A stretch of DNA of 64,000 nucleotides from Promethearchaeota archaeon (GTDB taxonomy: Archaea; Asgardarchaeota; Thorarchaeia; Thorarchaeales; Thorarchaeaceae): contig JBHLPF010000016.1 of assembly GCA_048939765.1 (NCBI GenBank), positions 30 through 64,029 on the forward strand, written 5' to 3'. Of the stretch, positions 1,486 to 62,997 are shown in pieces (position 1 is the first letter of the stretch; every line of letters begins with the position of its first letter). A program made the translations under genes and the position numbers. The notes under the pieces were generated by a model. It searched no databases and had not been told where the DNA came from. It saw only the letters and a list, made by a program, of their open reading frames with translations.

Positions 1486-1650
1486 TCATCCGCCGCCAGT
1501 CACGAGCTCCTTCCTGACTATCTCGCGACACTCCCCATCATCGTCTTCCTCAACGACGACGAAATGAGCGCCGCATGATAGTCAGCAGTCGTAGCACCGC
1601 ACAACCATCTCTACGAGGTTGAGCAGTCCTTCCGGTATTTCTTCCGTCAT
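1486..1650 (-). CDS. vhuU: VhuU-like mini-subunit: selenocysteine-containing C-terminal segment of the [NiFe(Se)] hydrogenase large subunit (TGA at 1584..1582 read as Sec)
   Basis: Manual translation from the ATG 11 nt after the vhuA stop gives MTEEIPEGLLNLVEMVVRCYDC-U-LSCGAHFVVVEEDDDGECREIVRKELVTGGG*. This matches the C-terminal Ni-ligand motif RxYD[PC][C/U]xxCxxH, which the upstream 438-aa subunit lacks. The track misses it because of the in-frame TGA. Confidence 0.8.
1514..1585 (-). promoter_or_regulatory. coding-region RNA structure around the Sec codon (9-bp perfect inverted repeat plus inner 8-bp hairpin)
   Basis: Plus-strand CTGACTATC (1514..1522) and GATAGTCAG (1577..1585) are exact reverse complements, and the 5' arm in the mRNA includes the UGA. 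An inner stem pairs 1555..1562 with 1538..1545. Confidence 0.35.
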
Positions 1651-1661
1651 GTTTTACACCA

Positions 1662-2978
1662 TTATCTCTTCACCATAGGCTCTGGAAGCTTCAAGCTCTC
1701 GTGAGCCTTGTCTTCGAAAATCTGCTTAGCTGCGACCATGAGAGACTTCTCTATGCCCGCAATGTTGTTGTTAGTGGCGACGACGAGGTTCGCCTTGGTG
1801 AGCATCCCCTCGTCGTCTGAGATGTAGTTGTGCAGGAGAATGCCCCGAGGTGCTTCCACGATTCCCACGCCATCTCCCGCCTTGGGTTCTACATCGGAGA
1901 GTTTTACATCTGTGCTAACAATGTCAGGATCTTGGAGTAGGGTCGCTATCCATTCGAATGCCTGTACCAACTCAATGATTCGTGCATAGTGATATGCAAA
2001 GGTGTGGTGTGAAGGTCTACCCACCAGTTCACGCATCTCTTTGAGCGCCGCATCTGCCAGAGGAGTTGCCATCTTCTCATTGACATTGCAACGGGCCAGG
2101 GTGTTTGCACGCCATATGCCATCGGGATATCCTGCTGGCTTGTAGTATATATGAGTTGCATAGCTGTGTTTAGCTACATGTTCACCGTAGTATTTCGTAT
2201 AGTCTTTTGGTTCGAAGTCCGCGACTATTTTGCCACCCGGCTCTTGCACTCGCACAGTACCGTCATAGATGTCAAGTTCCCCTTTGTTTGAGAGACCTAT
2301 GTAGTAGGTTGGAACCACAGCGACCTTTGTTATCACATCAAGGTAGTCCGTCACCACCTTCTTTGCAAGGTCAACGGTATTCAGTGTTAGTTGCTGAATC
2401 TCTTCGAGCCGTCCGATGAAAAAGTCACGGTCCTCTTCCTTCATCGAAGTCAGCATTCCACCGGGAATTCCGGTCGTCGGATGTACCGCCTTCGCGCCGA
2501 TGGCTCTGATCAGCTCTTGACCGAACTCCATCAGTTTGATTGCTTGAACAGCCACATCAGGGAGGTCTCTCAACACAGCTGCAACATTTCTATCCGCAGG
2601 ATTTGCAAATGGCCCGTACACAAAGTCAGGAGCAGCAAGTGCGTAGAAGTGGATTGCATGTGATGAGAACTGCTTCGCCTCTATCATCAACCTGCGTAGT
2701 TTGATTGCAGCAGGAGGAGGTGTAATATCCCAAGCCGCCTCAACAGCCTTGATTGATGCAAGATGGTGAGGAATCGGGCAGATACCGCAAATCCTGGGAG
2801 CAATCCGTGGAGCCTCCTCCATGGGACGTCCTTCTAGGAATTTCTCAAAGAACCTTGTGCTATTCACGTTGAACTGTACATCTTTGACCTTGCCATCCTT
2901 GCCCAGTTTGAGTGTCAATGAGCCATGACCCTCGAGCCGAGTCACTGGATCAATTCGGATGGTCTTCTCTTCTGTCAT
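1662..2978 (-). CDS. vhuA: [NiFe] hydrogenase large subunit, MvhA/VhuA type (group 3c-like), lacking the C-terminal Ni-ligand motif
   Basis: 438 aa with N-terminal PVTRLEGHG and the RICGICPIPH (RxCGxCxxxH) motif. It ends ...KLPEPMVKR without DPCxxCxxH. ATGA overlap with vhuG. Confidence 0.9.
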   Translation of the reverse strand: MTEEKTIRIDPVTRLEGHGSLTLKLGKDGKVKDVQFNVNSTRFFEKFLEGRPMEEAPRIAPRICGICPIPHHLASIKAVEAAWDITPPPAAIKLRRLMIEAKQFSSHAIHFYALAAPDFVYGPFANPADRNVAAVLRDLPDVAVQAIKLMEFGQELIRAIGAKAVHPTTGIPGGMLTSMKEEDRDFFIGRLEEIQQLTLNTVDLAKKVVTDYLDVITKVAVVPTYYIGLSNKGELDIYDGTVRVQEPGGKIVADFEPKDYTKYYGEHVAKHSYATHIYYKPAGYPDGIWRANTLARCNVNEKMATPLADAALKEMRELVGRPSHHTFAYHYARIIELVQAFEWIATLLQDPDIVSTDVKLSDVEPKAGDGVGIVEAPRGILLHNYISDDEGMLTKANLVVATNNNIAGIEKSLMVAAKQIFEDKAHESLKLPEPMVKR

Positions 2979-3898
2979 TTTGTCTTCGCCTCCTCGCGCT
3001 TAATTCTCATTCTTCCAAGGTGACTAGAAGCATAGTCGAATCTCCAGAAAGTTCCCAAGGGGTCTTTCACTTGTTCCACCAACTTCTCGGGCTCAATTGG
3101 CGCATATGATCCTAGCATCGAGATTGATGCTGCGCCGTGGTCCTGCGTAACTGGCGGTGGTGGACCAAAGCATCCACGACAGGTGGCACCTTTATTCACG
3201 CACTGACCCTCACATAGACCCCAGGTTGCAGAGCCTACGCAGATGTAGCCTTGTTCTAGCAGGCACCTGTCTGGGTCAGCAATTCCTTGATACGGTCGCA
3301 AAATCTCATTGATAGGAGTGTCCTTCTTCTCTCGATTGCAATAGTGGCACACAGTATGTGGCGGAAGGTCTATGGGCTGACCTGAGAGAAGCGCGCTCAC
3401 TGCTGTGTATATGAGGTCAGGAGTGGGTGGACAACCGGGAAGGTAGATGTCGATGTCCACAAAGTCAGAGTTTGGTTTCACCACGGGGGCTATTCCAGGC
3501 AAGTTCTCATATGGAACCTTGCCATCCTTCACAGTCTTATTGTTCCTGAATTTGACATCATAGCATTCCTCGATATCAGAGAAATTAGCCAAACCTGGTA
3601 TCCCACCAAAGCATGAGCATGAACCGAAGGCTATCAGTATCTTGCATTTTTCACGCATCAACTTCAGTAGATGAATATCCTCCTCGGTTCGTGCCATTCC
3701 TTCATAGAGGCCCACAACGATTGACTTGTCTTCATAGCTCTCCAGATGATGGAGCTTGAAGTCTGCAACTGCCTGCCAATATTTAATCTCAATCGCTGGA
3801 AGAACCTCAGCCAATCGGAGGTGAATGTCAACAAGACTCTGGAAACAACCCCAGCAGCTCGACCCTTGGCCCATTGCAATTGGAACTGGATCTGCCAC
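2975..3898 (-). CDS. vhuG: [NiFe] hydrogenase small subunit, MvhG/VhuG type
   Basis: 307 aa with Cys clusters (SSCWGC, GSCSCFGG, LPGCPP, CHYC, CRGCFGP) typical of small subunits. GTG start with a GGGAGGT SD. Confidence 0.9.
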   Translation of the reverse strand: MADPVPIAMGQGSSCWGCFQSLVDIHLRLAEVLPAIEIKYWQAVADFKLHHLESYEDKSIVVGLYEGMARTEEDIHLLKLMREKCKILIAFGSCSCFGGIPGLANFSDIEECYDVKFRNNKTVKDGKVPYENLPGIAPVVKPNSDFVDIDIYLPGCPPTPDLIYTAVSALLSGQPIDLPPHTVCHYCNREKKDTPINEILRPYQGIADPDRCLLEQGYICVGSATWGLCEGQCVNKGATCRGCFGPPPPVTQDHGAASISMLGSYAPIEPEKLVEQVKDPLGTFWRFDYASSHLGRMRIKREEAKTK

Positions 3899-3900
3899 CT

Positions 3901-4134
3901 TCAGACCTCCCTCAGTTTGAAGACGAGCTCATGATGCTCCTCTCCCGCGATCTCTATATTGCCCCATCGAAGCAAGCCAAGTAGGTTCCACATGAGCACC
4001 TTCTTGTCCATCTCTGTCTTCTCGCTGATTGTGCTGACACTTGCTGGGCCTTCCTTGAGTGATTCAAGTATGGACTTCCTCTGTTGCGTCACAACAGCAT
4101 AGTTCTGATCGAAGTACATTGTGAACTCTGTCAT
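3901..4134 (-). CDS. small winged-helix-like protein conserved in both hdr operons
   Basis: Start trimmed to the ATG at 4134, which forms an ATGA overlap with the mvhD stop and has GGGAGGT 8 nt upstream. The 77-aa product RKSILESLKEGPASVSTISEKTEMDKKVLMWNLLGLLRWGNIEIAGEE is clearly homologous to 14191..14556. Confidence 0.6.
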   Translation of the reverse strand: MTEFTMYFDQNYAVVTQQRKSILESLKEGPASVSTISEKTEMDKKVLMWNLLGLLRWGNIEIAGEEHHELVFKLREV

Positions 4135-4571
4135 ACCCATGACCTCCCTATTGGACCAACTTCTTTCACTTGTTCTATTAGCTTCGTCACTCCGTCTGCG
4201 AATACCTGCGCCTCGGAGGCACTTGCCCACTGAAGTCGGATTCGTCTTGGGTCAATGCCCGCCTGTTTGACTGCTTCAGCCATAATTGCCCATCTGGCTC
4301 TCATCTTCAAATTACCAGATGTATAGTGACAGTCTCCTGGATGGCATCCTGATACCAATACTCCATCTGCACCCTGATCAAGTGCACCAAGGATAAACTC
4401 GGTGTCAATCCTTCCAGTGCAGTTTACCCGGATGATACGTGCATTGGGTGGATATTGGATTCGGCTTGTACCAGCCAAGTCCGCTCCAGCATAACTACAC
4501 CAATTGCAGCAGAATGCTACAATCCTCGGTTCCCATTCATTACTAGTCTTGGTTTTGGATGCAGTGGCCAT
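4131..4571 (-). CDS. mvhD: MvhD/VhuD-type [2Fe-2S] electron-transfer subunit
   Basis: IVAFCCNWCSYAGADLAG ... VSGCHPGDCHY, the MvhD/FlpD signature. TAATG overlap with hdrA. Confidence 0.9.
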   Translation of the reverse strand: MATASKTKTSNEWEPRIVAFCCNWCSYAGADLAGTSRIQYPPNARIIRVNCTGRIDTEFILGALDQGADGVLVSGCHPGDCHYTSGNLKMRARWAIMAEAVKQAGIDPRRIRLQWASASEAQVFADGVTKLIEQVKEVGPIGRSWV

Positions 4572-6337
4572 TAGGCAGAACCTCCTTCAGGGTTCATAGG
4601 CGGACACAGAAACGCCTCAACCATTGCAAGAATTTGGTCATCAGTGGAGTGTAACATCATAATTGCAGAACTAGGACAAGCTGCTGCGCATGTGCCGCAT
4701 CCATGACACTTCGCCTCCGTCACGAATGCGATGGGCGGATCGTGTGACTCATCCATTGAGATCGCTCCGTATGGACAAGCGGTGACACATGTATGACAGG
4801 ATGAGCAAAGCTCCGGTGTGACACGTGATACAGTAGCCTCTATCTCTACATCCCCGCGAGCCATGAGTCCAACTGCTTTTGCGGCTGCGCCACTGGCGTC
4901 CGTTATTGCCTCAGAAGCGCTCTTTGCCGCTTGAGCTCCCCCTGCAATCATCACGCCAGCGGTGTGTGTGGTCAAGGGCGCAAGCTTGACATGCTCAGGA
5001 TTGAAGAATCCATCTGGACTTCTTGTGAGGCTGAAGACCTTGGAAACCTCGTCAACTCCATCAGGGGGCACCAATGCTGTGGCTAGGACTAACAGGTCTG
5101 GTTTCATTGCGAGGTCGTCGTCAGAGAAGACATCATGCCAATGCAGAGCCAGCTCTCCATCCGAAACCTGAGCTCGCGGCTTCTTCTCTGGCGGGTATTT
5201 GCTGTAGATGACGTGCTTGGCTCTGGCCTCTCTATGTATCTCTTCATGACCTCTTCCATATGTTCTGAGATCCTCATACAGAATGACTATTTCATCGGCA
5301 ATGTCCTTGAGTTCTCCTGCACTCTTTGCGATTGCTGTGCAACAGACCCTGGAGCAGTGTTCATGCCCCATCACACCAGCCTCACGAGAACCTACGCATC
5401 CAATGTACGCAATAGTTTTTGGTGGTTTTCCATTGCTTGGCCTCAAGACCTCTCCCTTGAGGCGCATTTCCTCCAGCTCAGCTAGTGTCACAATGTCCGG
5501 ATGGTCTCCGTAGGAATAGTAGTTGTACGGTTTGAATGGTTGAATCCCGGTGGCCACAATAATAGTGCCGACTCGATGTACCTTGTCCACATCATTTGTG
5601 GTCACTGTTATATCGAAGTTGCCAATATAGCCATCGAGGTCAGTCACAGTTGACTCCGTTAAGACTTCGATCCTGTCATGACCCTTTACCCTATTGATGA
5701 GCTGCTTCGTCAATGTATCACCCTGCTCACCTGTTGGATAGACACTAGCCAGCTTCGCCACTTGTCCTCCGAGGTTCTTCTCTCGTTCGACAAGAATGGC
5801 ATCAAAGCCTCGGTCTGCCACATCCAGAGCTGCACGCATCCCAGTGACGCCGCCTCCAACAACCAGAGCTTTCGGCTCTACTTTCACAGTCTTGACGGGC
5901 AGAGACTCAAGAAGCGCAGCACGTGCAACTGACATCCTGACAAGGTCCTTTGCCTTCTCTGTTGCTTCCTCAGGCTGTCGCATATGGCACCATGCCACGT
6001 GTTCTCTGAGGTTGACTTGATCAAACAAGTAGCGGTTAACATCCGCCTCTTCAACTACTCTCCGAAATGTCGGTTCATGCATCCGTGGACTACAGGAAGC
6101 GACAACCACACGGTTTAGATTATACTCCTTGATACTGTCCTTGATGAGCTGCTGTCCTGAGTCTGCACACATGAACATCGTCGACGTGGCGAACGCCACG
6201 TGAGGTAGACTCTCCGCGCTCTTGGCCACAGCCTCCACATCGACTGTACCTGCGATATTGTGCCCACACATGCAGACGAATACACCAATTCTTGGCACAT
6301 CGGCTGCAGCATCTGTTTTGATTTCTGCTTCAGTCAC
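4571..6337 (-). CDS. hdrA: heterodisulfide reductase subunit A (N-terminal Cys domain + FAD domain + C-terminal 2x[4Fe-4S])
   Basis: N-terminus RIGVFVCMCGHNIAGTVDVEAV...VVVASCSPRMHEPTFRR as in methanogen HdrA. Also GGGVTGMRAALD, CVGSRE...CSRVCC, and the C-terminal CSSCHTCVTACP / CHGCGTCAAACP. GTG start with GTGA overlap. Confidence 0.9.
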   Translation of the reverse strand: MTEAEIKTDAAADVPRIGVFVCMCGHNIAGTVDVEAVAKSAESLPHVAFATSTMFMCADSGQQLIKDSIKEYNLNRVVVASCSPRMHEPTFRRVVEEADVNRYLFDQVNLREHVAWCHMRQPEEATEKAKDLVRMSVARAALLESLPVKTVKVEPKALVVGGGVTGMRAALDVADRGFDAILVEREKNLGGQVAKLASVYPTGEQGDTLTKQLINRVKGHDRIEVLTESTVTDLDGYIGNFDITVTTNDVDKVHRVGTIIVATGIQPFKPYNYYSYGDHPDIVTLAELEEMRLKGEVLRPSNGKPPKTIAYIGCVGSREAGVMGHEHCSRVCCTAIAKSAGELKDIADEIVILYEDLRTYGRGHEEIHREARAKHVIYSKYPPEKKPRAQVSDGELALHWHDVFSDDDLAMKPDLLVLATALVPPDGVDEVSKVFSLTRSPDGFFNPEHVKLAPLTTHTAGVMIAGGAQAAKSASEAITDASGAAAKAVGLMARGDVEIEATVSRVTPELCSSCHTCVTACPYGAISMDESHDPPIAFVTEAKCHGCGTCAAACPSSAIMMLHSTDDQILAMVEAFLCPPMNPEGGSA

Positions 6338-9075
6338 TCTACTTCACCTCCCCTCGCGAGGACAATAGTTGCTCTCATCGCTGCTGCACTTCCTGCTGCA
6401 ACAGAGTCCGGAATGTCTTTCGGACCGTCGGAGCAGCCGCAGGTGTAGATGCCATCCACATCTGCATCAACTGGGTACAACAGCGGATGTTCTACCTTCA
6501 CATACCCATCGTCATCAAGTTCAATTCCAATGTCATCTGCGAGAATTCGCATGCCCTGTGAAGGTTGGATTCCTCCGCTTAGAACAATTAAATCATGCTT
6601 GTTCTGCAGAAACATTAGATCCTCTATGTTCTCAACTCTGACTAGAGAATCTCCATAGTCGGTTTCTACTACTTCAGCGACTCTGCCTCTGATGAAATTG
6701 ACCCCGAATCGTGTCTTAGCCATTTCAAGGAACTCCTCAAAGCCCTTCCCAAATGCTCTGATATCAGCATAGTACACGGTGACGTCAATATTGGGATCAT
6801 GTTCCTTTGCCATGACAGCATTCTTGATGGAATACATACAACAAACTCTTGAACAATTAGGTACTCCTTTGCTCAAATCTCTCGCGCCTACGCAATTGAT
6901 GAACCCTATTGAGCGAGGCGCCTTGCCATCACTCAGACGAACCAAGTGGCCAGCCGTCGGTCCAGCTGCATTGATCAAACGCTCATACTCCATTGCAGTG
7001 ATGACATTCGGTTGGGTTTCATATCCAAGACGAGGATACTCTTTGACGTCAAACAACTTGTAGCCAGTTGACATCACAATTGCTCCTACATCAAGCTCGA
7101 TTATCTTATCCTGCTGAGTATGGTCTATTGCTTCACGCTGACACGCTTCAACGCACTCCATACACTCGGAGCACACAGTGCAGTTCAGACATCTTCCCGC
7201 CTCGACTGCAGCGGTTTCAGCATCAAAACCAGTCTCCACTTCCTTGAAGGTGGTTCTTCTGTTGTAGATTGATATCTTTGGCATTTCTGCTCTTGGATGA
7301 ACTCCGAAGCGTGCCTTTCTGATTTCTTCAGAAGCAACTTCCAAGAAGGTCTCGGGGCGACCTGTTTTCAAGTCCTCACCTTGGAGGAATCTATGAATAG
7401 ACTCAGCGGCGGCATTTCCTTGACCTACGGCCTCAACGACAAGTCCAGGACCAGTAGCAAGATCACCGCCTGCAAAGACATTCTCCATGCTTGTCTGGAG
7501 AGTGACGGGGTCGACCACTGGAGTTCCCCACTCAGTCATTTCCAGCCCAACATGAGGACCTTTCGGATCAGCACGCTGACCTATTGCGATAATCATGTTC
7601 TCGAATGGAATCGAGAACTCGGAACCAGGAATCGGCACTGGTCGTCTTCTTCCTGAGTCATCAGGCTCCCCGAGTTTCATTTCTATACAGGTGACTCCTA
7701 GGAGTTTCCCCTTTGACTCGATGCACTCTGCAGGATTCGTTAGAACCTTCAACTCTATTCCTTCCTCAAGTGCATCTTCGATTTCATTATGAATTGCTGG
7801 CATCTCTGCCCTTGACCTTCGATAGATGATGGTCACGTTCTTGACACCAAGTCTCTTGGCAACCCGGGCTGCATCAATTGCAGCGTTGCCGCCACCAATG
7901 ACAGCCACATTGTGGCCGAGTGAGACTTCTTCACCACGGTTCACTCTGTCAAGGAAATCAATTGCATGATATACTCCAGTTGACTCCTCTCCCCTAATTC
8001 TCAATTTCGAGCTGATTGGAGCACCAGTCCCTAGGAATACAGCTTTGAAGCCCTCTTTTAGAAGGCTCTCGACGGAGGTGATCTCCTTGCTACACTGGAT
8101 CTTGACACCCATGCTTTCAACGATCTTGATTTCATCAGCGAGAACGTTTCTTGGAAGTCGGTGCTCGGGAATTGCATAGCGGAGCAATCCGCCAGCCTCT
8201 TCGCGCTTCTCGAATACAGTCACCGGATAGCCCAATCTCACCAGTTTCTCGGCACAGGCAATACCTGCGGGTCCAGCGCCGACAACAGCGACCTTCGCCT
8301 TCTTGTCAATGACCGGGATTTCTCCCTTATACCCTCCTTCTTCACGCTCATTGTCATAGAGCCACCGATGTAGGTTGCGGATACTAACTGCGTCATCAAC
8401 AGTACGTCTCTCACACTTCTCCTCACAGAGAGCAGGACAGACACGGCCAAGTGAGCCAGGAAACGGAATCGCATCTCTGACCAGCTTCAATGCCTTGCCA
8501 TTCTCGCCTCTTCGCATCAAAGCCGTGAAACCTTGAGCATTGACATGTGCAGGACAGGTCGTAAAGCATGGAGCGTGGCCACGCTTGTCGATTGTATGTG
8601 TGTTAGGGGTTGCCTGCGGGAAGGGAATATAGATTGCCTTCCTGAATCCTATTCCTTGGTCAAATTCGTTGGGAACCTCAATCGGACAGGCAGACACACA
8701 GTCTCCGCAGCCATTACACTTCTCTTCGTCCACGTATCGCGCTTTCTTGAGAACCTTGACTTTGAAGTTGCCAGCGCTTCCAGAAACCTCCTGAACCTCA
8801 CTGTATGTGAGCAGCTGAATATTCGGATGCCGCTGCACCTCACTTAGTCGAGGTGTCAGAATGCAAGCAGAACAATCCAAGGTGGGGAAGGTCTTATCGA
8901 TCATGGCCATGCGGCCACCGATGCTGCTTGATTTCTCAAGCAGGTGAACCTTGTAGCCTTGATCAGCTATGTCCAAGGCTGCTTGCATCCCAGCGACTCC
9001 TCCACCCACTACAAGGGCTTCATTCGACCATTTGCCTTTGGTGGCACTAGTCTTTGGTCTGGCCAGGGTCACCAC
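6334..9075 (-). CDS. HdrA-like flavoprotein lacking the N-terminal domain, with an inserted GltD/NfnB-like NAD(P)H:FAD [4Fe-4S] module
   Basis: HdrA parts: VVGGGVAGMQAALD, DKTFPTLDCSACIL, CVGARD...CSRVCC. Insert: FPGSLGRVCPALCEEKCERR, VAVVGAGPAGIACAEKL, GGLLRYAIPEHRLP, VIGGGNAAIDAAR, RRRPVPIPGSEF, FAGGD. Confidence 0.85.
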   Translation of the reverse strand: MVTLARPKTSATKGKWSNEALVVGGGVAGMQAALDIADQGYKVHLLEKSSSIGGRMAMIDKTFPTLDCSACILTPRLSEVQRHPNIQLLTYSEVQEVSGSAGNFKVKVLKKARYVDEEKCNGCGDCVSACPIEVPNEFDQGIGFRKAIYIPFPQATPNTHTIDKRGHAPCFTTCPAHVNAQGFTALMRRGENGKALKLVRDAIPFPGSLGRVCPALCEEKCERRTVDDAVSIRNLHRWLYDNEREEGGYKGEIPVIDKKAKVAVVGAGPAGIACAEKLVRLGYPVTVFEKREEAGGLLRYAIPEHRLPRNVLADEIKIVESMGVKIQCSKEITSVESLLKEGFKAVFLGTGAPISSKLRIRGEESTGVYHAIDFLDRVNRGEEVSLGHNVAVIGGGNAAIDAARVAKRLGVKNVTIIYRRSRAEMPAIHNEIEDALEEGIELKVLTNPAECIESKGKLLGVTCIEMKLGEPDDSGRRRPVPIPGSEFSIPFENMIIAIGQRADPKGPHVGLEMTEWGTPVVDPVTLQTSMENVFAGGDLATGPGLVVEAVGQGNAAAESIHRFLQGEDLKTGRPETFLEVASEEIRKARFGVHPRAEMPKISIYNRRTTFKEVETGFDAETAAVEAGRCLNCTVCSECMECVEACQREAIDHTQQDKIIELDVGAIVMSTGYKLFDVKEYPRLGYETQPNVITAMEYERLINAAGPTAGHLVRLSDGKAPRSIGFINCVGARDLSKGVPNCSRVCCMYSIKNAVMAKEHDPNIDVTVYYADIRAFGKGFEEFLEMAKTRFGVNFIRGRVAEVVETDYGDSLVRVENIEDLMFLQNKHDLIVLSGGIQPSQGMRILADDIGIELDDDGYVKVEHPLLYPVDADVDGIYTCGCSDGPKDIPDSVAAGSAAAMRATIVLARGGEVE

Positions 9076-9983
9076 TTTGCCTCCTGCTCGCGGCGGATGA
9101 CCTTAGACTCTATTCTATGAGCGAATTCGAGTAGGACATCAGGACTAATCTTGTTCAGGGGTAAGCCAAGGGTTTCTTGATCGATTCCCATGGCAGCTCC
9201 CATGAATTGGGGCAATGTGAGTACTGGAATTCGATCCCTTGGTTCACCACCTTCGCCAAACTGAACCTGTGTCAGCTGAATATTACAGAATACACACGCG
9301 GTCAGTATTCCTTTGGCTCCTGCGGCCTTGACGTTTGTAATCTTCTCAGAGCCAATGGCAGTGGCTAATTCCTCATCCATGGCGAGCATTGGGCCTCCAC
9401 AGCACCGGACCTTCCCTGCGTAGTCAACAGCTTGAGCACCACAGGCTTCAATGATATCATCGATAGACCTTGGCACCTCGGGATCGTCTACTTGAACTAT
9501 TTCAGCCGGACGGGTCACGTGGCAACCATAGTGTGCAGCGAGAACTACTCCGTTATACGGCTGAACTACTGCTCTTCTAATCGCATCGTAGCCCACCTCA
9601 TCTCGAAGGATTTGCAGAAGGTGCTTCACCTCAACTTTGCCGGTGTATTCTAGGTCTTCCTCGGCCAGAATTTCGTTGACTGTGGCCTTTAGTTCAGGCT
9701 CATTGTCCAGCATGTGTTTCACATGTTTCAGGGAACCGGAACATGCTCCACAGATTGCAATGATATCTTTCCCGAACCGCTCTGCAATTGCCAGAAGACG
9801 CCCACTCATAGCTGCGAAAGCTTCCCGACTCAGTGATTCAACATATTGAGCCCCGCAGCAATTAACATCCTTCATGTGGTGAGCAGTTACACCAAGGTGC
9901 TTTAGGACCGCCATAGTGGCTGCTTCGTAGGCAGGAAGCCTGACTGGTGTAGTGCAACCAGTGTAAACAAAATAGTCTGTCAA
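9069..9983 (-). CDS. hdrB: heterodisulfide reductase subunit B (two CCG domains)
   Basis: DVNCCGAQ...CGACSGS and VRCCGGP...CVFCNIQ. TTG start with TTGA overlap and a GGAGGTGA SD. Confidence 0.9.
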   Translation of the reverse strand: MTDYFVYTGCTTPVRLPAYEAATMAVLKHLGVTAHHMKDVNCCGAQYVESLSREAFAAMSGRLLAIAERFGKDIIAICGACSGSLKHVKHMLDNEPELKATVNEILAEEDLEYTGKVEVKHLLQILRDEVGYDAIRRAVVQPYNGVVLAAHYGCHVTRPAEIVQVDDPEVPRSIDDIIEACGAQAVDYAGKVRCCGGPMLAMDEELATAIGSEKITNVKAAGAKGILTACVFCNIQLTQVQFGEGGEPRDRIPVLTLPQFMGAAMGIDQETLGLPLNKISPDVLLEFAHRIESKVIRREQEAKW

Positions 9984-10546
9984 CTCCCATCACCTCCAGA
10001 GAAATACTTCTTCTTCAATCTTTGAGTGAATTCATTATTCCATCCCAAGTCGGTGTCAAGGCCTAAGTCATCTCTGTCATCCTCGATGAAGTCAGAGTAT
10101 GCATCTCCTAGAAGCCACCCATCGCTTAGGGCTTTCTCCACTGTTGATTTGAAAACCTCAGGGACATATCCATCCCTTGCAGCAATGTGTCGGACAGCCT
10201 GAAAGATCTCAGCCGGACTGACACCCTCTTGGCATCTCTCTTCGCACATTCTACATGTCATGCAAAGCCATGGCAAATCGCTCTGCAAGACTTCATCCCT
10301 CTTTCCAATGATTATCTTCTGAATGAGCTGGCGCGGGCGGTATCTATCGGAAAAAGAAGATACGGCACATGATGCTGTGCATATTCCGCACTGAATGCAC
10401 TTGTTGATGCCTTCGCCACCAGGTTCAGCTGCCACCTCTTTAGCAAAATGGGAAGAAGGAGTATGTTCAGCTTCAATTCCTTTATCGGTCTCTGTTCGAG
10501 TACCCATGTTTGGTCGACCTCTTTCAGACAGGATTCTCCGGACCAT
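9980..10546 (-). CDS. hdrC: heterodisulfide reductase subunit C (2x[4Fe-4S])
   Basis: CIQCGICTASC and CMTCRMCEERC. The start is ambiguous: the ATG at 10546 has its SD directly abutting, while the ATG at 10507 has AGAGGT 8 nt upstream and aligns with the paralog N-terminus. Confidence 0.85.
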   Translation of the reverse strand: MVRRILSERGRPNMGTRTETDKGIEAEHTPSSHFAKEVAAEPGGEGINKCIQCGICTASCAVSSFSDRYRPRQLIQKIIIGKRDEVLQSDLPWLCMTCRMCEERCQEGVSPAEIFQAVRHIAARDGYVPEVFKSTVEKALSDGWLLGDAYSDFIEDDRDDLGLDTDLGWNNEFTQRLKKKYFSGGDGS

Positions 10547-10680
10547 CCACCTTGTAACAAGGGGCTGGCTATCCTTTCTCCGTCTGTAATCTGTGGTGGA
10601 ATTCCAGTTACAGGATGTGCCGAAACTCCGACAAAGTGATTATATGTCTAGTGTCTTCGAGGAGTGCGTATCTCGTTCAT

Positions 10681-10701
10681 CTTCGTGATAAATATCGTAC
10701 A
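10681..10701 (-). promoter_or_regulatory. conserved upstream box shared by both hdr operons (includes a TATA-like ATATTTAT on the minus strand)
   Basis: cttcgtgataaatatcgtaca versus tttcatgaacgatatcgtaca at 17961..17981: 16/21 identical with a 10-nt identical core ATATCGTACA. Both lie about 130 nt upstream of the hdrC start. Confidence 0.3.
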
Positions 10702-10804
10702 CGAGGGTTATGCTCCGTGTTCGATATCGACACTATGATGTGTTTCTATGAAATTCCCCTTTTCTGAATGATTTTCTTGTGTTTTGTTGACTTGTGAACT
10801 CATG

Positions 10805-13800
10805 TCACGGGCCCACTTCAGAGTAAAGATTTCTTGAAGCAGCTTCAATCATAGGCATAAGTTGACTTGTCTTGTAGTGCTTCATGTCGATTGCATTCTG
10901 CGGGCAGGCCGCGCTACAAGTGCCGCATCCTTGACATGCCTCTCGCGCAATCAACATAGCATCGTCCTCAAGCCGAGGTGCTCCATAGGGACAGACTTCA
11001 GCACATAATTCACATTTGATGCATTTGTTGGTGTCAATCTCTGCGTAGATGGGTTCTATTTTGAATTCTCCAGGCCCCATCAAAGCTTGCGCCTTCGCGG
11101 CGGCTGCTTCACCCATTGAAACTGCTTTGGCGATGTCCATTGGACCAAGGCAAGCGCCAGCGACAAACACACCATCCTGGAACGACTCTACTGGCCTTAG
11201 TTTGGGATGTGCGCAAAGGAAGTACCCATAGTGGTCAGTGGTCATCTTCAGCATACGCGCCATATCGGGATTCTCAGGCTGTGGATGTAATGCTGTCGCC
11301 AAGACAACTAAGTCATATGTGAGCCCAATATTCATTCCAGTATACAGGTCTTCAGCATATACCTGGATCTTGTCCTCTATCGGGTTATGCTCCAATTCAG
11401 AAGCCCTCCCTTTCACGATGTTGACACCCATCTCACGTGCTCTCTGATAGAGCTCCTCGTATCCGATACCATGCGTTCGAATATCCATCGTGTATATCGT
11501 AACATCAGTTTCTGGATACTTCTCCTTGATTTGAGTTGCTTGCTTCAGAGAGTTTTCACAGCCAACATAGCAGCAGTAGTCTCTATCGAACCTTGCATCA
11601 CGAGACCCTACGCATTGGAGGAATGCAATGCTAGATGGGGTTTTTCCGTCAGAAGGTCGTTTTATCTTACCATGAGTTGGCCCAGCAGCATTTGTCAATC
11701 GTTCGAACTGTGCATTTGTGATGATATGGGGTAGAATTCCGTACCCGTACTCACGAGTGTCCACTGGTTCGTATGAACGTGAACCTGTGGTAACGATGAT
11801 GGTTCCTACATCTCGGTTCAGAATCTGGTCTGTCATTTTGTGGTCTATAGCATTCGCCTTGCATGCGTCGACACATTGGTTACATTCGCAACATACTGCA
11901 CAACTGATACATCGTTCAGCTTCAGCTAGTGCGCTCTTCTCATTGAATCCAAGTTCGACTTCAGCAAAGCTATTCTTTCGCTTCCCTGTGCTCAATACAG
12001 GCATGACAACTCTGGGAGAACTCCGGATCCCATCCTTGAGGATGAGATCCTTAGGCACAGGAGATGGTTCTTCTCCTCTTCCTAGCGCAAGGTCTTCGCC
12101 AGTTAGGAACCTATCAATTGAGATGGCCGCCTCCTTGCCTGCTCCTACAGCTTCAACGACAGTGGCAGGACCCGTGACCACATCGCCCCCCGCAAAAACG
12201 CCCTTCTTGCTTGTCTGATATGTAACCTCGTCGACAACGACTGTGCCCCACTTAGTAAGCTCTAGGCCCTTGAGTGGACCTTTCGGATCGACTAGCTGAC
12301 CAATCGCAATTATGATGTCATCAACCTTCATATCATACTCCGAATCTGGTATTGGAATGGGACGCCTCCGACCTGATGCATCCGGTGCACCGAGACGCAT
12401 CTGAACACATCGGATTCCATTCACTTTCTCGTCAGTCTCGAGTATCTCCACAGGCGATGATAGAATCTTTATTTTGATTCCCTCTCGTTCAGCCTCATCT
12501 ATTTCACTGCGGATGGCAGGCATCTCATCCCTTGACCGACGATAGACAATTGTGACTCGATTTGCACCCAGGCGCTTTGCACTTCTAGCTGCATCAATCG
12601 CGGCATTCCCGCCACCAATCACAACCACATCTTCACCGAGCGTGACCTTTCTTCCTTGATTGAATCGCTCCAAGAAGTCAAGGGCATGATGAACACCTTT
12701 TGCGTCTTCTCCATTCACTTTTAGCTTACTACTCAACGATGCACCAGTTGCCAGAAAGACCGCTTTGTAACCGTCCTTCTTTAGGTCAGAAAGAGATTCG
12801 ACATTCACTCCTGTCTTCATCTCAACACCCAACGATTCGACTGCTGCGATTTCTTCCCCAAGAATTTCTCTTGGAAGACGGTACTCTGGTATTGCATATC
12901 GCAACAAGCCCCCTGCTTCAGGCTTTGCCTCAAAGACTGTCACTGGATAGCCCAATTTGATAAGATCGTAGGCACATGCAATCCCAGCTGGTCCTGAGCC
13001 AACTATTGCCACTTTCTTTTTCTTGGTTGGCTTGATTCGTGCAAATGGGTCTTCACCTTTCTCGCGTGCGTTGTCAGCCAAGAAACGATGGAGATTCCTA
13101 ATGGACAATGGCTCGTCGATTGATCCCCGCTCGCATCTCTCTTCGCAAAGACTTGTGCAAACCCTACCTAGCGAACCAGGGAATGGATTCGACTCCCGAA
13201 AGATCTCGAGCGCCTTGTCAAAGTTCTTCTCACGCATCAGTGTGATAAATGCATGGCTGTTGACTCCTGCAGGACAAGCTATTCGGCAAGCAGCTGTGCC
13301 TCTCTTATCAATGGTGAATGTGTTGGGCACTGCTTGTGGAAATGGTCGATAGATTGCCTTTCTATCAGCTAGACCATATTCGTATTCATTTGTCACACGA
13401 ACTGGGCATACTGGTTCACATTCACCGCAGCCATTGCAGGCATCAGCACTGACATAGCCTGCTTTCTTTCTAACTGAGAGTTTGAAATCACCCACATGAC
13501 CATCCACTTTCTCCAGCTCACTATACGCAAGGAGTTCGATCTCAGGATGTCGTTCTACTGATGCCATGATGGGGCCAAGTATGCAGATTGCGCAGTCATT
13601 TTGGGGAAACACCTTATCTAGAAGAGCCATCTGTCCGCCTATGGTTGGTCGCTTTTCTATGAGAGAAACCGGATAGCCAGAATTGGCCAGGTCCAGTGCC
13701 GCAGAAATTCCAGCAACGCCTCCGCCCACAACAGCTACTCGAGGTATGATCACTACGGATTCCATTTCCAGTGATTCAAGTTTTCGGGCACGTGCAATAG

Positions 13801-14194
13801 CCATCTCTATAAGGTGCTTTGCCTTTTCGGTCGCCTTTTCCTTTTCATCCATATGACACCATGAAACATGTTCCCGAATGTTCACCATCTCGAAGAGGAA
13901 TCGGTTTAGTCCAACCTCTTCGATCGTCTTTCGAAATACAGGCTCATGTGTCCGTGGCGTACATGATGCAACAATGACCCTATTGATATCATGTTCCTCT
14001 ATACTCTCTTTTATCGACTTAAGGCCGTCAGAAGAACAGGTGAACATGAGATCATTACTGAAGACTACGTTTGGAAGGTCCTTGACATGGTCACGCACAG
14101 CTTCCACGTCAACAGTCCCTGCAATGTTCAGGCCACAGTGACAAGTCCAGACTCCAATTCGGACATCGTCGCTTCTATCAACTGCCATCATCAT
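10805..14194 (-). CDS. full-length HdrA with inserted GltD/NfnB-like NAD(P)H module (1129 aa)
   Basis: N-terminal domain RIGVWTCHCGLNIAGTVDVEAV...ASCTPRTHEPVFRK; VVGGGVAGISAALD; insert FPGSLGRVCTSLCEERCERG, VAIVGSGPAGIACAYDL, GGLLRYAIPEYRLP; CVGSRD; C-terminal CIKCELCAEVCP / CQGCGTCSAACP. Confidence 0.85.
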   Translation of the reverse strand: MMMAVDRSDDVRIGVWTCHCGLNIAGTVDVEAVRDHVKDLPNVVFSNDLMFTCSSDGLKSIKESIEEHDINRVIVASCTPRTHEPVFRKTIEEVGLNRFLFEMVNIREHVSWCHMDEKEKATEKAKHLIEMAIARARKLESLEMESVVIIPRVAVVGGGVAGISAALDLANSGYPVSLIEKRPTIGGQMALLDKVFPQNDCAICILGPIMASVERHPEIELLAYSELEKVDGHVGDFKLSVRKKAGYVSADACNGCGECEPVCPVRVTNEYEYGLADRKAIYRPFPQAVPNTFTIDKRGTAACRIACPAGVNSHAFITLMREKNFDKALEIFRESNPFPGSLGRVCTSLCEERCERGSIDEPLSIRNLHRFLADNAREKGEDPFARIKPTKKKKVAIVGSGPAGIACAYDLIKLGYPVTVFEAKPEAGGLLRYAIPEYRLPREILGEEIAAVESLGVEMKTGVNVESLSDLKKDGYKAVFLATGASLSSKLKVNGEDAKGVHHALDFLERFNQGRKVTLGEDVVVIGGGNAAIDAARSAKRLGANRVTIVYRRSRDEMPAIRSEIDEAEREGIKIKILSSPVEILETDEKVNGIRCVQMRLGAPDASGRRRPIPIPDSEYDMKVDDIIIAIGQLVDPKGPLKGLELTKWGTVVVDEVTYQTSKKGVFAGGDVVTGPATVVEAVGAGKEAAISIDRFLTGEDLALGRGEEPSPVPKDLILKDGIRSSPRVVMPVLSTGKRKNSFAEVELGFNEKSALAEAERCISCAVCCECNQCVDACKANAIDHKMTDQILNRDVGTIIVTTGSRSYEPVDTREYGYGILPHIITNAQFERLTNAAGPTHGKIKRPSDGKTPSSIAFLQCVGSRDARFDRDYCCYVGCENSLKQATQIKEKYPETDVTIYTMDIRTHGIGYEELYQRAREMGVNIVKGRASELEHNPIEDKIQVYAEDLYTGMNIGLTYDLVVLATALHPQPENPDMARMLKMTTDHYGYFLCAHPKLRPVESFQDGVFVAGACLGPMDIAKAVSMGEAAAAKAQALMGPGEFKIEPIYAEIDTNKCIKCELCAEVCPYGAPRLEDDAMLIAREACQGCGTCSAACPQNAIDMKHYKTSQLMPMIEAASRNLYSEVGP

Positions 14195-14556
14195 TCATCC
14201 CCTTTGGTTCCCATTAGGCTCCTAGCGTACAGGTACTCCCGTTTCTCTTCACCCACAATTTCGACCTCGTTCCATTTCATCAATGCCAAGATATTCCAGA
14301 GGACTCTGTGTGGCTCAAGTTCCGTTGCCCTCGCGATTTGTGAGACCGTTGCGAAACCATCATCCAATTGCTTCAGAATATAGTGCCTTTCGTACTCCTC
14401 TTGGATGGTCTTGTCTACCAACTCCTTAAATCTCTCTTGAGTTAGTTCGCCATTTTGGACAAGAACATCACCCTTTCCTATGAGCCATCTGAGTCGTTCG
14501 TCTCCGAAAGCATCCACCATCGCCTCTATGCGACTACTATCTACTGTTTCTCTCAT
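14191..14556 (-). CDS. small winged-helix-like protein, paralog of 3901..4134 with an N-terminal extension
   Basis: RHYILKQLDDGFATVSQIARATELEPHRVLWNILALMKWNEVEIVGEE aligns with the operon-1 protein. ATGA overlap with the downstream hdrA. Confidence 0.6.
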   Translation of the reverse strand: MRETVDSSRIEAMVDAFGDERLRWLIGKGDVLVQNGELTQERFKELVDKTIQEEYERHYILKQLDDGFATVSQIARATELEPHRVLWNILALMKWNEVEIVGEEKREYLYARSLMGTKGDE

Positions 14557-22337: not shown

Positions 22338-22586
22338 GTGAACACCTCAACTCATAACCTGAGTTTGACAAATCGCGATTGCCATGTTTGTTTTATAACG
22401 CACGCGCCAGCGGCAATGTCGCGAATCGCTCACACCTTTAACACTTTCTGTACCAGAAGCAAAAAGTGCTAGTTTAGAGCCAGTGGTTGGGCAAGAAGGT
22501 AACACTCAAAAGCTAGGCGGAAGCGAACACTGACTGTGCCCAACTCAATTGGGCTGATGATTGTCTGCTGCTCGGAGTGTGCTCGA

Positions 22587-62899: not shown

Positions 62900-62997
62900 T
62901 GGTCGTCCTCCTTGGATGCGATATGGGGCACATAAACCTTCACGCTGAAGCGCAAGGCAAAATAAGCTGCTGAATCCGGAATATTCAGGTCTCTGAT

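Follow-up and report, generated by a model that had tools for sequence, protein, structure and literature searches.

A GltD/NfnL-inserted type III HdrA encoded beside a predicted selenium-dependent hydrogenase in a Thorarchaeota-type Asgard archaeon, a candidate link between NADP(H) and the HdrA ferredoxin branch

[quoted passage not shown] Because it belongs with these descriptions, the GltD/NfnL-inserted HdrA examined here is a real but not a new kind of enzyme. An initial annotation of this DNA had left undecided whether the fusion had been characterised: described it has been, in these three reports, but our literature search found no biochemical data on any GltD-inserted HdrA and, with subscription journals outside its coverage, no Asgard-specific description of the fusion. 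In Desulfobacterium autotrophicum and Syntrophobacter fumaroxidans, HdrL joins HdrA to a glutamate-synthase small subunit, like the 913-aa protein of our locus; its gene precedes mvhD and lies in association with hdrBC genes, its substrate is proposed to be NAD(P)H, and the S. fumaroxidans protein has been detected in the proteome under sulfate-reducing conditions (PMC2702500, PMC5947623). The bacterial HdrL proteins measure ~1150-1560 aa with additional domains and are frequently selenoproteins; their identity to the 913-aa protein is 34-50%. Their loci have no adjacent hydrogenase genes, and DsrC is the suspected disulfide. The type III classes A9 and A10 reported from ANME-1 and Bathyarchaeota (PMC12054007) correspond to the HdrA9/10/11 'HdrA-NfnB' proteins of ANME-1 (PMC9012536); there, as here, a GltD/NfnB-like domain of ~470-500 aa interrupts the inserted ferredoxin domain. 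[quoted passage not shown] Type III HdrA keeps K409 and E356, again as here, its function being predicted only.

Outside these fusions, two groups of proteins carry a comparable cassette. NfnL (4ylf, 5jca) and GltD share with the insert two [4Fe-4S] clusters, FAD, two Rossmann folds and an NADPH-type motif (fold rmsd about 2.1-2.4 Å, TM about 0.8), but they have the native topology and require NfnS or GltB as a partner, and NfnL further differs in its Glu ligand and its bifurcating flavin. NfnA/StnC (9n5u, 9bov, 8oh5) provides the best match of the insert in both sequence (E about 1e-111) and fold (E about 1e-52), and has in common with the 913-aa HdrA the permuted order, the location of the cassette inside a host FeS domain and a proximal ligand that is neither Cys nor Glu. 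In NfnA/StnC the cassette sits in a NuoG/Fdh-like subunit, partnered with HydBC-like NfnBC/StnAB, of an FMN-based (Bfu) bifurcating enzyme, whereas here it sits in HdrA; the StnC ligand is Lys where ours is His, and StnC Cys114 is Ala here. On the HdrA side, the MvhADG-HdrABC and Vhu-Hdr complexes of hydrogenotrophic methanogens (5odc, 8rvu) and this locus have genes for HdrB, HdrC, MvhD and a [NiFe(Se)] hydrogenase in common, and their HdrA cores are roughly 60-66% identical over aligned blocks, as estimated from the alignments. In contrast to methanogen Hdr, HdrA functions are here divided over two paralogs, a predicted heterodimer, and the ferredoxin exit bears an NAD(P)H module. The organism is not known to make CoM/CoB.

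The stretch of DNA analysed (64 kb, hereafter the window) encodes three HdrA paralogs besides the 913-aa protein, together with the remaining genes of such a complex (Table 1). The translation of the 913-aa ORF contains every motif quoted in the initial annotation, and it comprises only a thioredoxin-reductase-like FAD domain and an inserted ferredoxin domain bearing the GltD/NfnL-like insert. The first HdrA segment holds the FAD Rossmann fold, C68, equivalent to Cys197 of solved HdrA, and the first ferredoxin motif (C120, C123, C126, C130), all five Cys being invariant in an alignment of 122 homologs at 38-95% identity. The second carries the other ferredoxin motif (C635, C638, C641, C645), E698 (E356), K751 (K409) and the HA4 cluster motif C728...C741xxxCC, which fits the pattern CxGxRD...CSxxCC; K751, E698, C728, C741 and C746 are invariant, and C745 is found in 118 of the 122 homologs. 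In the central segment, the domain HMM search proposed by the initial annotation confirmed GltD/NfnB-type families, with Fer4_20 (DPD domain II) at 167-246 (E 6e-19) followed by Pyr_redox_2 at 261-553 (E 3e-50), the latter matched over its full length (profile 2-291/291), and among solved structures the insert matched NfnL-like modules at E 1e-111 to 1e-80 and GltD at E 1e-56. An AF2 model of the 913-aa protein (pLDDT 88.7, pTM 0.80) had NfnA of NfnABC and StnC as its best relatives in Foldseek (9bov_A, E 2.5e-52), while its HdrA core matched 8rwn_A (TMt 0.95) and its insert matched NfnL 4ylf_B (rmsd 2.1 Å, TMt 0.80). Four ORFs on the + strand within the gene (6369-6641, 6779-7063, 7297-7656 and 8533-8847) were taken as antisense artefacts. 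As judged by its FAD domain with the K409/E356 pair and HA4 motif, its inserted GltD/NfnB-like domain and its association with hdrB, hdrC and mvhD, the protein is a type III HdrA (HdrL / HdrA-NfnB class) of a Thorarchaeota-type Asgard archaeon.

Table 1. Features of the hdr-hydrogenase locus, in positions of the window; res, residues of the 913-aa protein.
Feature	Position	Strand	Evidence or remark
vhuU-like small ORF with C-terminal Ni-binding motif	1486..1650	-	in-frame TGA (1582-1584)
mvhA/vhuA, [NiFe] hydrogenase large subunit	1662..2978	-	Pfam NiFeSe_Hases
mvhG/vhuG, [NiFe] hydrogenase small subunit	2975..3898	-	Pfam Oxidored_q6
small conserved ORF between mvhD and mvhG	3901..4130	-	paralog of ORF 14191-14556
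mvhD, [2Fe-2S] connector	4131..4571	-	Pfam FlpD, E 9e-52
hdrA partner, 588 aa	4571..6337	-	matches 8rvu_a 9-242 and 328-657
hdrA type III, A9-like	6334..9075	-	913 aa; Pfam, solved-structure alignment, AF2, Foldseek
HdrA part 2, res 635-912	6340..7173	-	match to 5ODC_A 293-570
insert, res 166-634	7174..8580	-	Pfam, solved structures, homolog alignment, Foldseek
insert tail, res 596-634, ...FKEVETGFDAETAAVEAGRCLNC	7174..7290	-	profile match to NfnL/GltD N-terminal ~45 residues
HdrA part 1, res 17-165	8581..9027	-	match to 5ODC_A 143-291
hdrB, two CCG domains	9069..9983	-	Pfam CCG, E 4e-24
hdrC, 2x[4Fe-4S]	9980..10546	-	Pfam Fer4_8/Fer4_17
hdrA type III, A10-like, 1129 aa	10805..14194	-	complete HdrA, 5ODC 3-291 + 293-651
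small conserved ORF, 121 aa	14191..14556	-	paralog of ORF 3901-4130
hdrA A6-like, 445 aa	14559..15896	-	TrxR domain + intact inserted ferredoxin domain
second mvhD	15893-16360	-	Pfam
second hdrB	16357-17271	-	Pfam
second hdrC	17268-17834	-	Pfam

Alignment with 5ODC_A places the insert between residues 291 and 293 of the solved protein. The initial annotation had put it at the ferredoxin-insert position, where the canonical ferredoxin domain sits. More exactly, the insert neither takes the place of that domain nor simply comes after it, being nested inside it and flanked by its two Cys motifs, CNGCGDCVSACP and CSECMECVEAC. [quoted passage not shown] A profile of the insert tail (44 aa) matched the N-termini of NfnL at E 1.6e-11 to 2.4e-10 (4ylf_B 4-42 at 1.6e-11), its only other matches being internal segments of the NfnA/StnC structures 9n5u, 9bov and 8oh5_C and the N-terminus of GltD. 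The insert is colinear with 9bov_A 102-574 and 8oh5_C 101-573, and its RCLxC segment follows the FAD and NADPH domains instead of forming the N-terminal segment, as it does in native NfnL. On these alignments, the cassette is a circular permutation of the NfnL/GltD arrangement, like that of Bfu-type NfnA/StnC. The permutation would set both cassette termini in the loop between the second and third Cys of the distal-cluster motif, and it is because of the permutation that C632, a distal-cluster residue, and C635, which belongs to the ferredoxin cluster of HdrA, are only three residues apart. The permuted topology explains how the same NADPH module comes to be plugged into unrelated hosts (NuoG-like, HdrA). 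In the available text of PMC12054007 and PMC9012536 we found no mention of the permuted topology, the His ligand or the GxGxxA/YRR motif. The identical junctions in A9 and A10 and their mosaic identities also sit awkwardly with the published 'two separate insertion events'.

The cassette contains seven Cys and H236 for two [4Fe-4S] clusters, a GxGxxG FAD fold, an NAD(P)H fold with GGGNAA and YRR, and R306. The seven Cys, both Rossmann motifs, R306 and Y418-R419-R420 are invariant or nearly so across 63-122 homologs, as are both HdrA ferredoxin motifs, the HA4 Cys and K751/E698. Together with the Pfam and structure matches, the conservation of these motifs in the 122 homologs upholds the initial reading of the central segment as a GltD/NfnB-like FAD/NAD(P)H/[4Fe-4S] module. 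The FAD and NADPH Rossmann folds and predicted ligands for two clusters are those of NfnL; the fourth proximal-cluster ligand is not, being His in the 913-aa protein instead of the Glu of NfnL. Position 236, assigned by hand-indexing the solved-structure alignment against StnC K170, is His in 91 and Lys in 31 of the 122 sequences and never Glu, the aligned relatives of >1200 aa having Lys. We know of no characterised precedent for a His-ligated proximal cluster in an NfnL/GltD-type module, and the potential of this cluster is therefore not predictable. The invariant Arg306 is equivalent to the Arg that contacts the FAD N5 in NfnL; StnC/NfnA conserves this Arg too, but without the N5 contact (PMC10482914, PMC12018979). 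The second Rossmann fold reads GxGxxA (394-399, A399 invariant) and is followed by YRR, a pattern shared with the aligned NADPH-specific NfnL and StnC sequences, and the NAD(P)H site is probably NADPH-specific. The first fold (GxGxxG, 266-271) we take, from structures of the GltD/NfnL family, to be the FAD fold. We did not adopt the GXGXXG-based inference of NAD+ given in PMC12054007, as in this module GxGxxG would be the FAD fold and the second, nicotinamide-nucleotide fold is GxGxxA.

The genes around the 913-aa ORF make up the MvhADG-HdrABC set: hdrB with its two CCG domains, hdrC, mvhD, mvhG and mvhA are encoded together, along with a vhuU-like piece, and the cluster setting of HdrB, HdrC, MvhD and [NiFe] hydrogenase genes put forward initially was recovered by Pfam. 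The mvhA/vhuA product is truncated before the C-terminal Ni-binding motif and lacks DPCxxC at its C-terminus. In the vhuU-like ORF, which is conserved with its in-frame stop in 15 loci, reading the TGA as selenocysteine gives RCYDC-U-LSCGAH. The linked hydrogenase is thus, on its gene sequences, a split selenocysteine (Vhu-type) enzyme; a VhuA/VhuU large subunit split in this way occurs in Methanococcales. In a search for a SECIS element, a single folding of the 106 nt that overlap and follow the vhuU-like stop codon (1395-1500) was not significant (z = 0.48), and Rfam at gathering thresholds and a tRNA search returned no match. The two small conserved ORFs are paralogs (40% identity over 55 aa, E 4e-15) with no Pfam match above threshold, and the one between mvhD and mvhG is present in most Thorarchaeota loci. 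Pfam searches detected no NfnS-like partner among essentially all ORFs of at least 120 aa in the 64-kb window, nor any NuoF/NuoE-like genes among its ORFs.

Type III classes A9 and A10 are neighbours in this single locus, each forming a pair with an HdrA paralog that complements it. The 588-aa HdrA has an N-terminal FeS domain, a TrxR domain and a C-terminal 2x[4Fe-4S] ferredoxin domain, but neither the inserted ferredoxin domain nor the Cys197 motif, which is absent in 22/22 orthologs. Its gene adjoins or lies near a type III hdrA in ~20 loci, and in ~20 Thorarchaeota loci the 913/588 pair keeps its synteny with hdrCB, mvhD and mvhGA. Instead of a single four-domain HdrA forming a homodimer, the domains thus appear divided between the 913-aa and 588-aa proteins. 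These complementary domain losses imply a heterodimer, and the 913-aa protein most likely dimerises with the adjacent 588-aa HdrA. The same complementarity rule has been proposed for tandem HdrA of ANME (PMC9012536). The 588-aa partner would contribute the cluster domain at its N-terminus, which C68 of the 913-aa protein would complete, and the ferredoxin domain at its C-terminus, which would take electrons from MvhD. Both HdrA proteins, HdrB, HdrC, MvhD and the split [NiFeSe] hydrogenase (VhuA/U/G-like) would then form one asymmetric bifurcating unit.

In canonical Hdr, the inserted ferredoxin domain (HA5/HA6) is the low-potential exit of electrons to ferredoxin or polyferredoxin (PMC12350162, PMC12054007). 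The cassette, which would carry FAD, an NAD(P)H site and two [4Fe-4S] clusters, most likely couples NADP(H) directly to this branch: the HdrA ferredoxin domain would be the attached ferredoxin partner of an internal ferredoxin:NADP(H) oxidoreductase, a wiring between clusters suggested by their adjacency in the sequence and by homologous structures. In Bfu-type NfnA/StnC the cassette FAD is a non-bifurcating, mid-potential entry point for NADPH (PMC10482914, PMC12018979). With NfnA/StnC as the closest relatives, a His/Lys ligand and no NfnS in the window, the cassette flavin here would likewise be a non-bifurcating 2e-/1e- converter, leaving HdrA-FAD as the only bifurcating or confurcating flavin. 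The predicted net reaction would be 2 H2 + NADP+ + R-S-S-R' <-> NADPH + H+ + RSH + R'SH, its direction set by the in-situ H2 pressure and the NADPH/NADP+ ratio. We give this reading as a whole, a type III HdrA with its cassette as NADP(H) converter on the ferredoxin branch, a heterodimer and a single bifurcating flavin, a probability of roughly 0.55. The standard potentials are -414 mV for H2, -320 mV for NAD(P)H and about -140 mV for the disulfide. NAD(P)H is then the mid-potential couple at standard conditions, and bifurcation from H2 to NADP+ would be needed only at low H2 or high NADPH/NADP+, which counts against the reading, as do the preference of PMC12054007 for NAD(P)H as mid-potential donor and its inference of NAD+ over NADP+.

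That donor role is the basis of a second model, which was proposed for type III HdrA in PMC12054007 and which we consider possible but doubtful here. Electrons from NAD(P)H would pass from the cassette through the inserted ferredoxin domain to HdrA-FAD and bifurcate there to disulfide, by the high-potential branch through HdrBC, and to protons, by the low-potential branch through MvhD and the hydrogenase with evolution of H2, the reverse being confurcation. The cofactor evidence is identical to that for the converter reading, at standard potentials NAD(P)H does lie between H2/H+ and the disulfide, and cultured Asgard archaea are reportedly syntrophic producers of H2 or formate. The gene content also agrees, since mvhADG occurs in Bathyarchaeota type III hdrA clusters as well (PMC12054007). 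However, the canonical input (MvhD and the C-terminal ferredoxin domain) and the low-potential exit (HA5/HA6) would have to swap roles, the hydrogenase is of the uptake-class Vhu/Mvh type, and a fermenter would lack a separate supply of disulfide oxidant; the sequence itself gives no clue to the direction.

We consider it very unlikely that HdrA-FAD and the NfnB-like FAD both bifurcate or confurcate, linking H2, NADPH, ferredoxin and a disulfide, as the initial annotation and Chadwick et al. envisaged. The insert is 35-39% identical to bifurcating NfnL (4ylf_B, 5jca_L, 5vj7_A; rmsd about 2.1-2.7 Å in Foldseek), R306 is invariant, and one ligand of the proximal cluster is, like that of NfnL, a residue other than Cys. 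Yet the cassette is nearer to NfnA/StnC, which has the same permuted topology and whose flavin is non-bifurcating, with an Arg that makes no N5 contact; the Glu of NfnL is replaced by His or Lys; the bifurcating flavin of NfnL needs a high-potential path through the [2Fe-2S] cluster and FAD of NfnS, and the window contains no NfnS-like protein or NfnA partner; and the distal cluster, the ferredoxin docking site in NfnL, is taken up by the junction with HdrA. Two bifurcating flavins in one polypeptide are on this evidence not favoured.

The architecture recurs in 36 loci of independent genomes, mostly Thorarchaeota and one of them a closed chromosome record, with conserved synteny, and this recurrence excludes the assembly artefact joining two genes that the initial annotation had raised. 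It is found in at least 43 clusters at 50% identity and in many metagenome contigs, and with >85 clusters at 90% identity it greatly outnumbers the nine sequences surveyed in PMC12054007. Its hosts here, Thorarchaeota and related Asgard archaea, lie outside the coverage of PMC12054007 and PMC9012536. That the cassette has degenerated or is purely structural, without a part in redox chemistry, or that the fusion is an artefact of assembly or annotation, has a negligible chance and no supporting point, being refuted by cofactor-binding residues invariant throughout the 122 homologs, a fold predicted with high confidence by AF2 and this recurrence of the same ORF.

HdrA proteins with an integral NAD(P)H module are widespread, and they would bypass the usual path to NADPH, in which electrons leave HdrA on free ferredoxin and pass through Nfn. 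Since the conserved locus includes a selenium-dependent hydrogenase, the enzyme is a concrete candidate for coupling H2, pyridine nucleotides and a thiol/disulfide pair in Asgard archaea. More speculatively, and in our view improbably, the His-ligated heterodimeric type III Hdr and its selenium hydrogenase could form the principal direct connection between the pools of H2 and NADPH in Thorarchaeota, as a disulfide-pulled H2:NADP+ oxidoreductase or in NADPH-driven H2 evolution, and the His cluster might tune a further gating or bifurcation step within the cassette, one absent from the characterised Nfn, Stn and Hdr enzymes. A coupling of H2, pyridine nucleotides and disulfide in Asgard archaea would bear on hydrogen-based models of eukaryogenesis.

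The minus-strand ORF at 6334-9075 encodes a 913-aa HdrA interrupted by a module of the GltD/NfnL type. Its translation contains every motif quoted in the initial annotation, and Pfam matches to Fer4_20 and Pyr_redox_2 bear out the GltD/NfnB-like character ascribed there to the central segment. Residues 143-291 of HdrA 5ODC_A align with residues 17-165 of the protein and residues 293-570 with residues 635-912, so that the roughly 469 intervening residues interrupt HdrA cleanly between its residues 291 and 293. As had been noticed, the 445-aa paralog matches both ends of the protein (69% and 59% identity), and the 1129-aa paralog, a complete HdrA (5ODC 3-291 and 293-651), carries the same insertion at the same residue. 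The insertion site originally proposed, that of the inserted ferredoxin domain, needs one refinement, as the domain has not been replaced: the insert is nested within it, between motif 1 (C120-x2-C-x2-C-x3-C130-P) and motif 2 (C635-x2-C-x2-C-x3-C645). An AlphaFold2 model built on an alignment of 63 sequences is confident (mean pLDDT 88.7, pTM 0.80), and Foldseek searches with this model returned NfnA/StnC (E about 1e-52), NfnL (4ylf_B, rmsd 2.1 Å, TM 0.80) and the HdrA core (8rwn_A, TM 0.95), predicted HdrA and NfnL-type parents that agree with those obtained from sequence matches.

Features of the hdr locus, the 913-aa protein and other genes in the window
Feature	Position	Strand	Remark
Set 2	17834-10805		hdrC, hdrB, mvhD, hdrA(445), small ORF, hdrA(1129), in order
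Set 1	10546-1486		hdrC, hdrB, hdrA(913), hdrA(588), mvhD, small ORF, mvhG, mvhA, vhuU-like ORF, in order
FAD Rossmann fold, N-terminal	residues 17-109		913-aa protein; Pfam
Ferredoxin motif, single	residues 114-133		913-aa protein; Pfam
Fer4_20 (Fe-S domain of dihydropyrimidine dehydrogenase/GltD)	residues 167-246		913-aa protein; Pfam, E 6e-19
Pyr_redox_2, complete	residues 261-553		913-aa protein; Pfam, E 3e-50, profile 2-291 of 291
His236 codon	8368-8370	-	913-aa protein
Small ORF, set 2	14191-14556	-	hdrA(445)/hdrA(1129) gap
Small ORF, set 1	3901-4130	-	mvhD/mvhG gap
vhuU-like ORF	1486-1650	-	54 codons
In-frame TGA	1582-1584	-	vhuU-like ORF
FrhB/FdhB-like gene	46533-47651	+	F420-dependent protein
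Mtd gene	51145-52011	+	F420-dependent methylene-H4MPT dehydrogenase
Aldehyde:ferredoxin oxidoreductase gene	22536-24797	+
Aldehyde:ferredoxin oxidoreductase gene	56217-58031	-
Large ORF	33048-36632	-	1194 aa
Large ORF	41382-43298	+	638 aa
Large ORF	48187-49938	-	583 aa
Large ORF	61310-63106	-	598 aa

A word-index search identified more than 85 full-length clusters (59-95% identity), named at NCBI as Candidatus Thorarchaeota, Hermodarchaeota, Promethearchaeota or Odinarchaeota MAG proteins, as well as further versions, some of about 1,010-1,120 aa and others of about 1,460-1,565 aa. Scanning one genome per species yielded 36 loci, headed by a Thorarchaeota MAG (98% identity); among bacteria, relatives sharing 34-44% identity were found in Spirochaetes, Bacteroidales, Desulfosarcina and Ca. 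Desulfatibia. In an exhaustive phmmer search of 1.84 billion representatives, 43 of the clusters at 50% identity within the best 150 aligned over host and insert in one colinear stretch. Recurrence in 36 loci and many clusters rules out an assembly artefact. About 370 additional residues are present in the ~1,500-aa forms of Bacteroidales and Spirochaetes. In the loci of Desulfosarcina variabilis (L034) and Ca. Desulfatibia (L035), the ORFs of HdrL-type relatives (about 10001-14000) are broken past ferredoxin motif 2, consistent with the in-frame selenocysteine codons reported for HdrL.

The best sequence matches of the insert are the NfnL-like modules of Thermococcus sibiricus Nfn-BfuA (9n5u_A, E 2e-111), Caldicellulosiruptor NfnA (9bov_A, E 3e-111) and Sporomusa StnC (8oh5_C, E 3e-91), with classical NfnL/NfnB (E 1e-82 to 6e-80), GltD (about 1e-56) and DPD (about 1e-47) next in rank. 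The phmmer match to classical NfnL splits in two, NfnL 46-462 aligning with the start of the insert and NfnL 8-43 (...NFEEV..GY..EEA..EAQRCLQC) with its end (...TFKEVETGFDAETAAVEAGRCLNC). Searched against the whole PDB sequence set, a profile of this tail (44 columns, 34 homologs) matched the N-termini of NfnL (4ylf_B 4-42, E 1.6e-11; 5vj7_A 6-45; 5jca_L 6-45) and GltD (E 0.011), internal segments of 9n5u (552-594), 9bov (526-567) and 8oh5_C (525-566), and nothing beyond these. The split match and the profile matches together show a circular permutation of the cassette with respect to NfnL/GltD that places the new termini in the loop separating the second and third Cys in the distal-cluster motif (RC-x2-C / x2-3-PC-x3-CP). 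The identical permuted order is found in the Bfu-type NfnA/StnC cassette, itself an insertion, in a NuoG-like host (PMC10482914). Both junctions in the 913-aa protein are tight (...TIDK-RG-HAPC170... and ...RC629LNC632-TV-C635SEC...), and from the three-residue spacing of C632 and C635 we infer that the cassette distal cluster would lie within electron-transfer distance of one HdrA ferredoxin cluster.

In recent Hdr structures, the low-potential electron leaves at HA6, a cluster of the inserted ferredoxin domain at which the MvhB and FmdF polyferredoxins dock, and HA4 is the route to HdrBC (PMC12350162). This places the cassette on the ferredoxin-reducing branch of HdrA. A study based on predicted structures of ANME-1 proteins arrives at the same graft point and expects the GltD domain to obstruct access of ferredoxin (PMC12054007). 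In the 1129-aa protein, the HA4 motif (about residues 860-880) reads CVGSRD...YCCYVGC versus CVGxRD...CSRVCC, with one Cys displaced three positions, as also seen in three homologs (P0114, P0115 and P0118).

Seven cassette cysteines (C170, C174, C213, C217, C221, C629 and C632), the first Rossmann fold (G266xG268xxG271), the second (G394-G-G396...A399), R306 and Y418-R419-R420 are invariant in 122 aligned homologs, so that the module possesses all residues for binding FAD, a nicotinamide dinucleotide and two [4Fe-4S] clusters. The GxGxxG of this module belongs to the first Rossmann fold, which we take to be FAD-binding. The nicotinamide-dinucleotide fold reads GGGNAA (GxGxxA, residues 394-399), followed by YRR (418-420), as in the NADPH-specific NfnL and StnC, and NADPH is favoured over NADH as the probable substrate, both for this reason and because the GXGXXG motif from which a published survey inferred NAD+ for type III HdrA (PMC12054007) corresponds to the first fold. 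NfnL uses Glu, and StnC Lys170, as fourth ligand to the flavin-proximal cluster (PMC10482914, PMC12018979). Hand-indexing of the NfnL/StnC sequence alignment places a His at this position in both the 913-aa and 1129-aa proteins (SIRNLH236RW). His is present in 91 of 91 homologs of 1,200 aa or less (Asgard forms) and Lys in all 31 above 1,200 aa (the ~1,460-1,565-aa forms, bacterial where named); the putative His ligand would thus distinguish Asgard-type cassettes from all characterised relatives. Where StnC has Cys114, the 913-aa protein has Ala.

The host segments T1 and T2 of the 913-aa protein are nearest the insert-free 445-aa paralog (78% and 65% identity, versus 55% and 38% with the 1129-aa protein), whereas the insert (58% identity) and ferredoxin motif 2 (52%, versus 33% with the 445-aa paralog) are shared with the 1129-aa protein, and both insert junctions are residue-for-residue identical in the two fusions. 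The mosaic identities and identical junctions suggest that the cassette moved between hdrA paralogs by recombination or was precisely lost in the 445-aa lineage. Two independent insertions, such as the 'two separate insertion events' proposed in the literature, appear to fit less well.

The locus comprises two tandem hdr sets. The 588-aa HdrA of set 1 combines an N-terminal cluster domain with a C-terminal 2x[4Fe-4S] domain and lacks the inserted ferredoxin domain, about 9 residues standing for 8rvu_a 243-327; the DKTFPTxDCSxC motif, which holds Cys197, is absent from it and from 22 of 22 orthologs examined. [quoted passage not shown] According to Chadwick et al. (PMC9012536), the N-terminal cluster of one HdrA protomer is completed by Cys197 of its partner, and ANME tandem HdrA pairs with the same complementarity are proposed to form heterodimers; by the same logic, HdrA(913) and HdrA(588) would heterodimerize. 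All four HdrA paralogs of the window retain the FAD-stabilising Lys (K409), and the 913-aa and 588-aa proteins, the two checked, the FAD-stabilising Glu (E356). The gene neighbourhood is kept in about 20 Thorarchaeota loci, and the double-set arrangement occurs in three (L001, L002 and L016). The two small ORFs are paralogous (40% identity over 55 aa) and match no Pfam family, with a weak winged-helix-like match for one; most Thorarchaeota loci have a homolog in the mvhD/mvhG gap.

MvhA is only 438 aa long and lacks the C-terminal Ni-binding motif, which is carried by the vhuU-like ORF twelve bases downstream of mvhA (MTEEIPEGLLNLVEMVVRCYDC-TGA-LSCGAH...), with the in-frame TGA at the metal-binding Cys position (RCYDC-U-LSCGAH). 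Fifteen related loci contain a vhuU-like ORF with the same in-frame stop. This arrangement fits a split VhuA/VhuU-type [NiFeSe] hydrogenase large subunit with a predicted selenocysteine, consistent with MvhA/VhuU being a common Asgard selenoprotein (PMC11227280); no convincing or significant SECIS-like fold was found downstream of the vhuU-like ORF.

We favour, with a probability of about 0.55, an asymmetric HdrA(913)/HdrA(588)-HdrBC-MvhD-VhuAGU complex in which HdrA-FAD would be the bifurcating site and the cassette would act on the low-potential branch as a tethered ferredoxin:NADP(H) oxidoreductase, for a net reaction of 2 H2 + NADP+ + RSSR' <-> NADPH + H+ + 2 thiols. By our estimates, with H2 at 1-10 Pa in situ the H+/H2 couple has a potential of about -270 to -300 mV, and cellular NADP+/NADPH one near -370 mV, so that H2 would serve as mid-potential donor and its coupling to the reduction of a disulfide would be reasonable. 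The main rival, which we consider rather unlikely, is the published proposal of NAD(P)H as mid-potential donor, with H2 as a product (PMC12054007); the sequence data do not distinguish the direction of the reaction. Bifurcation at both HdrA-FAD and the cassette FAD in one polypeptide, as envisaged in the initial annotation, is improbable, because no NfnS-like partner was found among the ORFs of the 64-kb window scanned with Pfam, the cassette groups with non-bifurcating NfnA/StnC modules by similarity and topology, and the NfnL Glu ligand is absent from it.

For four large ORFs elsewhere in the window, Pfam returned nothing at E <= 1e-5 (for the one of 598 aa, the cut-off was E <= 1e-3). A gene for a HerA-like (DUF87) ATPase follows the 638-aa ORF. 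The FrhB/FdhB-like, Mtd and two aldehyde:ferredoxin oxidoreductase genes suggest that the organism also has an H4MPT-type Wood-Ljungdahl branch and metabolism linked to ferredoxin.

The GltD/NfnB-inserted HdrA fusion has been described three times before: as HdrL, in which HdrA is fused to a glutamate-synthase small-subunit module (PMC2702500) and which is expressed in Syntrophobacter fumaroxidans (PMC5947623); as ANME-1 HdrA9/10/11, where an NfnB-like insertion of about 500 aa interrupts the inserted ferredoxin domain (PMC9012536); and as 'type III HdrA', classes A9 and A10 (PMC12054007). Under the latter scheme, the window has one A9-like HdrA (913 aa), one A10-like (1129 aa) and one A6-like (445 aa). 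Neither a biochemical or structural characterisation of the fusion nor a description of it in Asgard archaea was found in the searchable literature. To these accounts, the present analysis adds the distribution and abundance of the fusion in Asgard archaea, a permuted-cassette topology common to Bfu enzymes, a putative lineage-specific His ligand, a complementary partner HdrA and a predicted selenium hydrogenase context.
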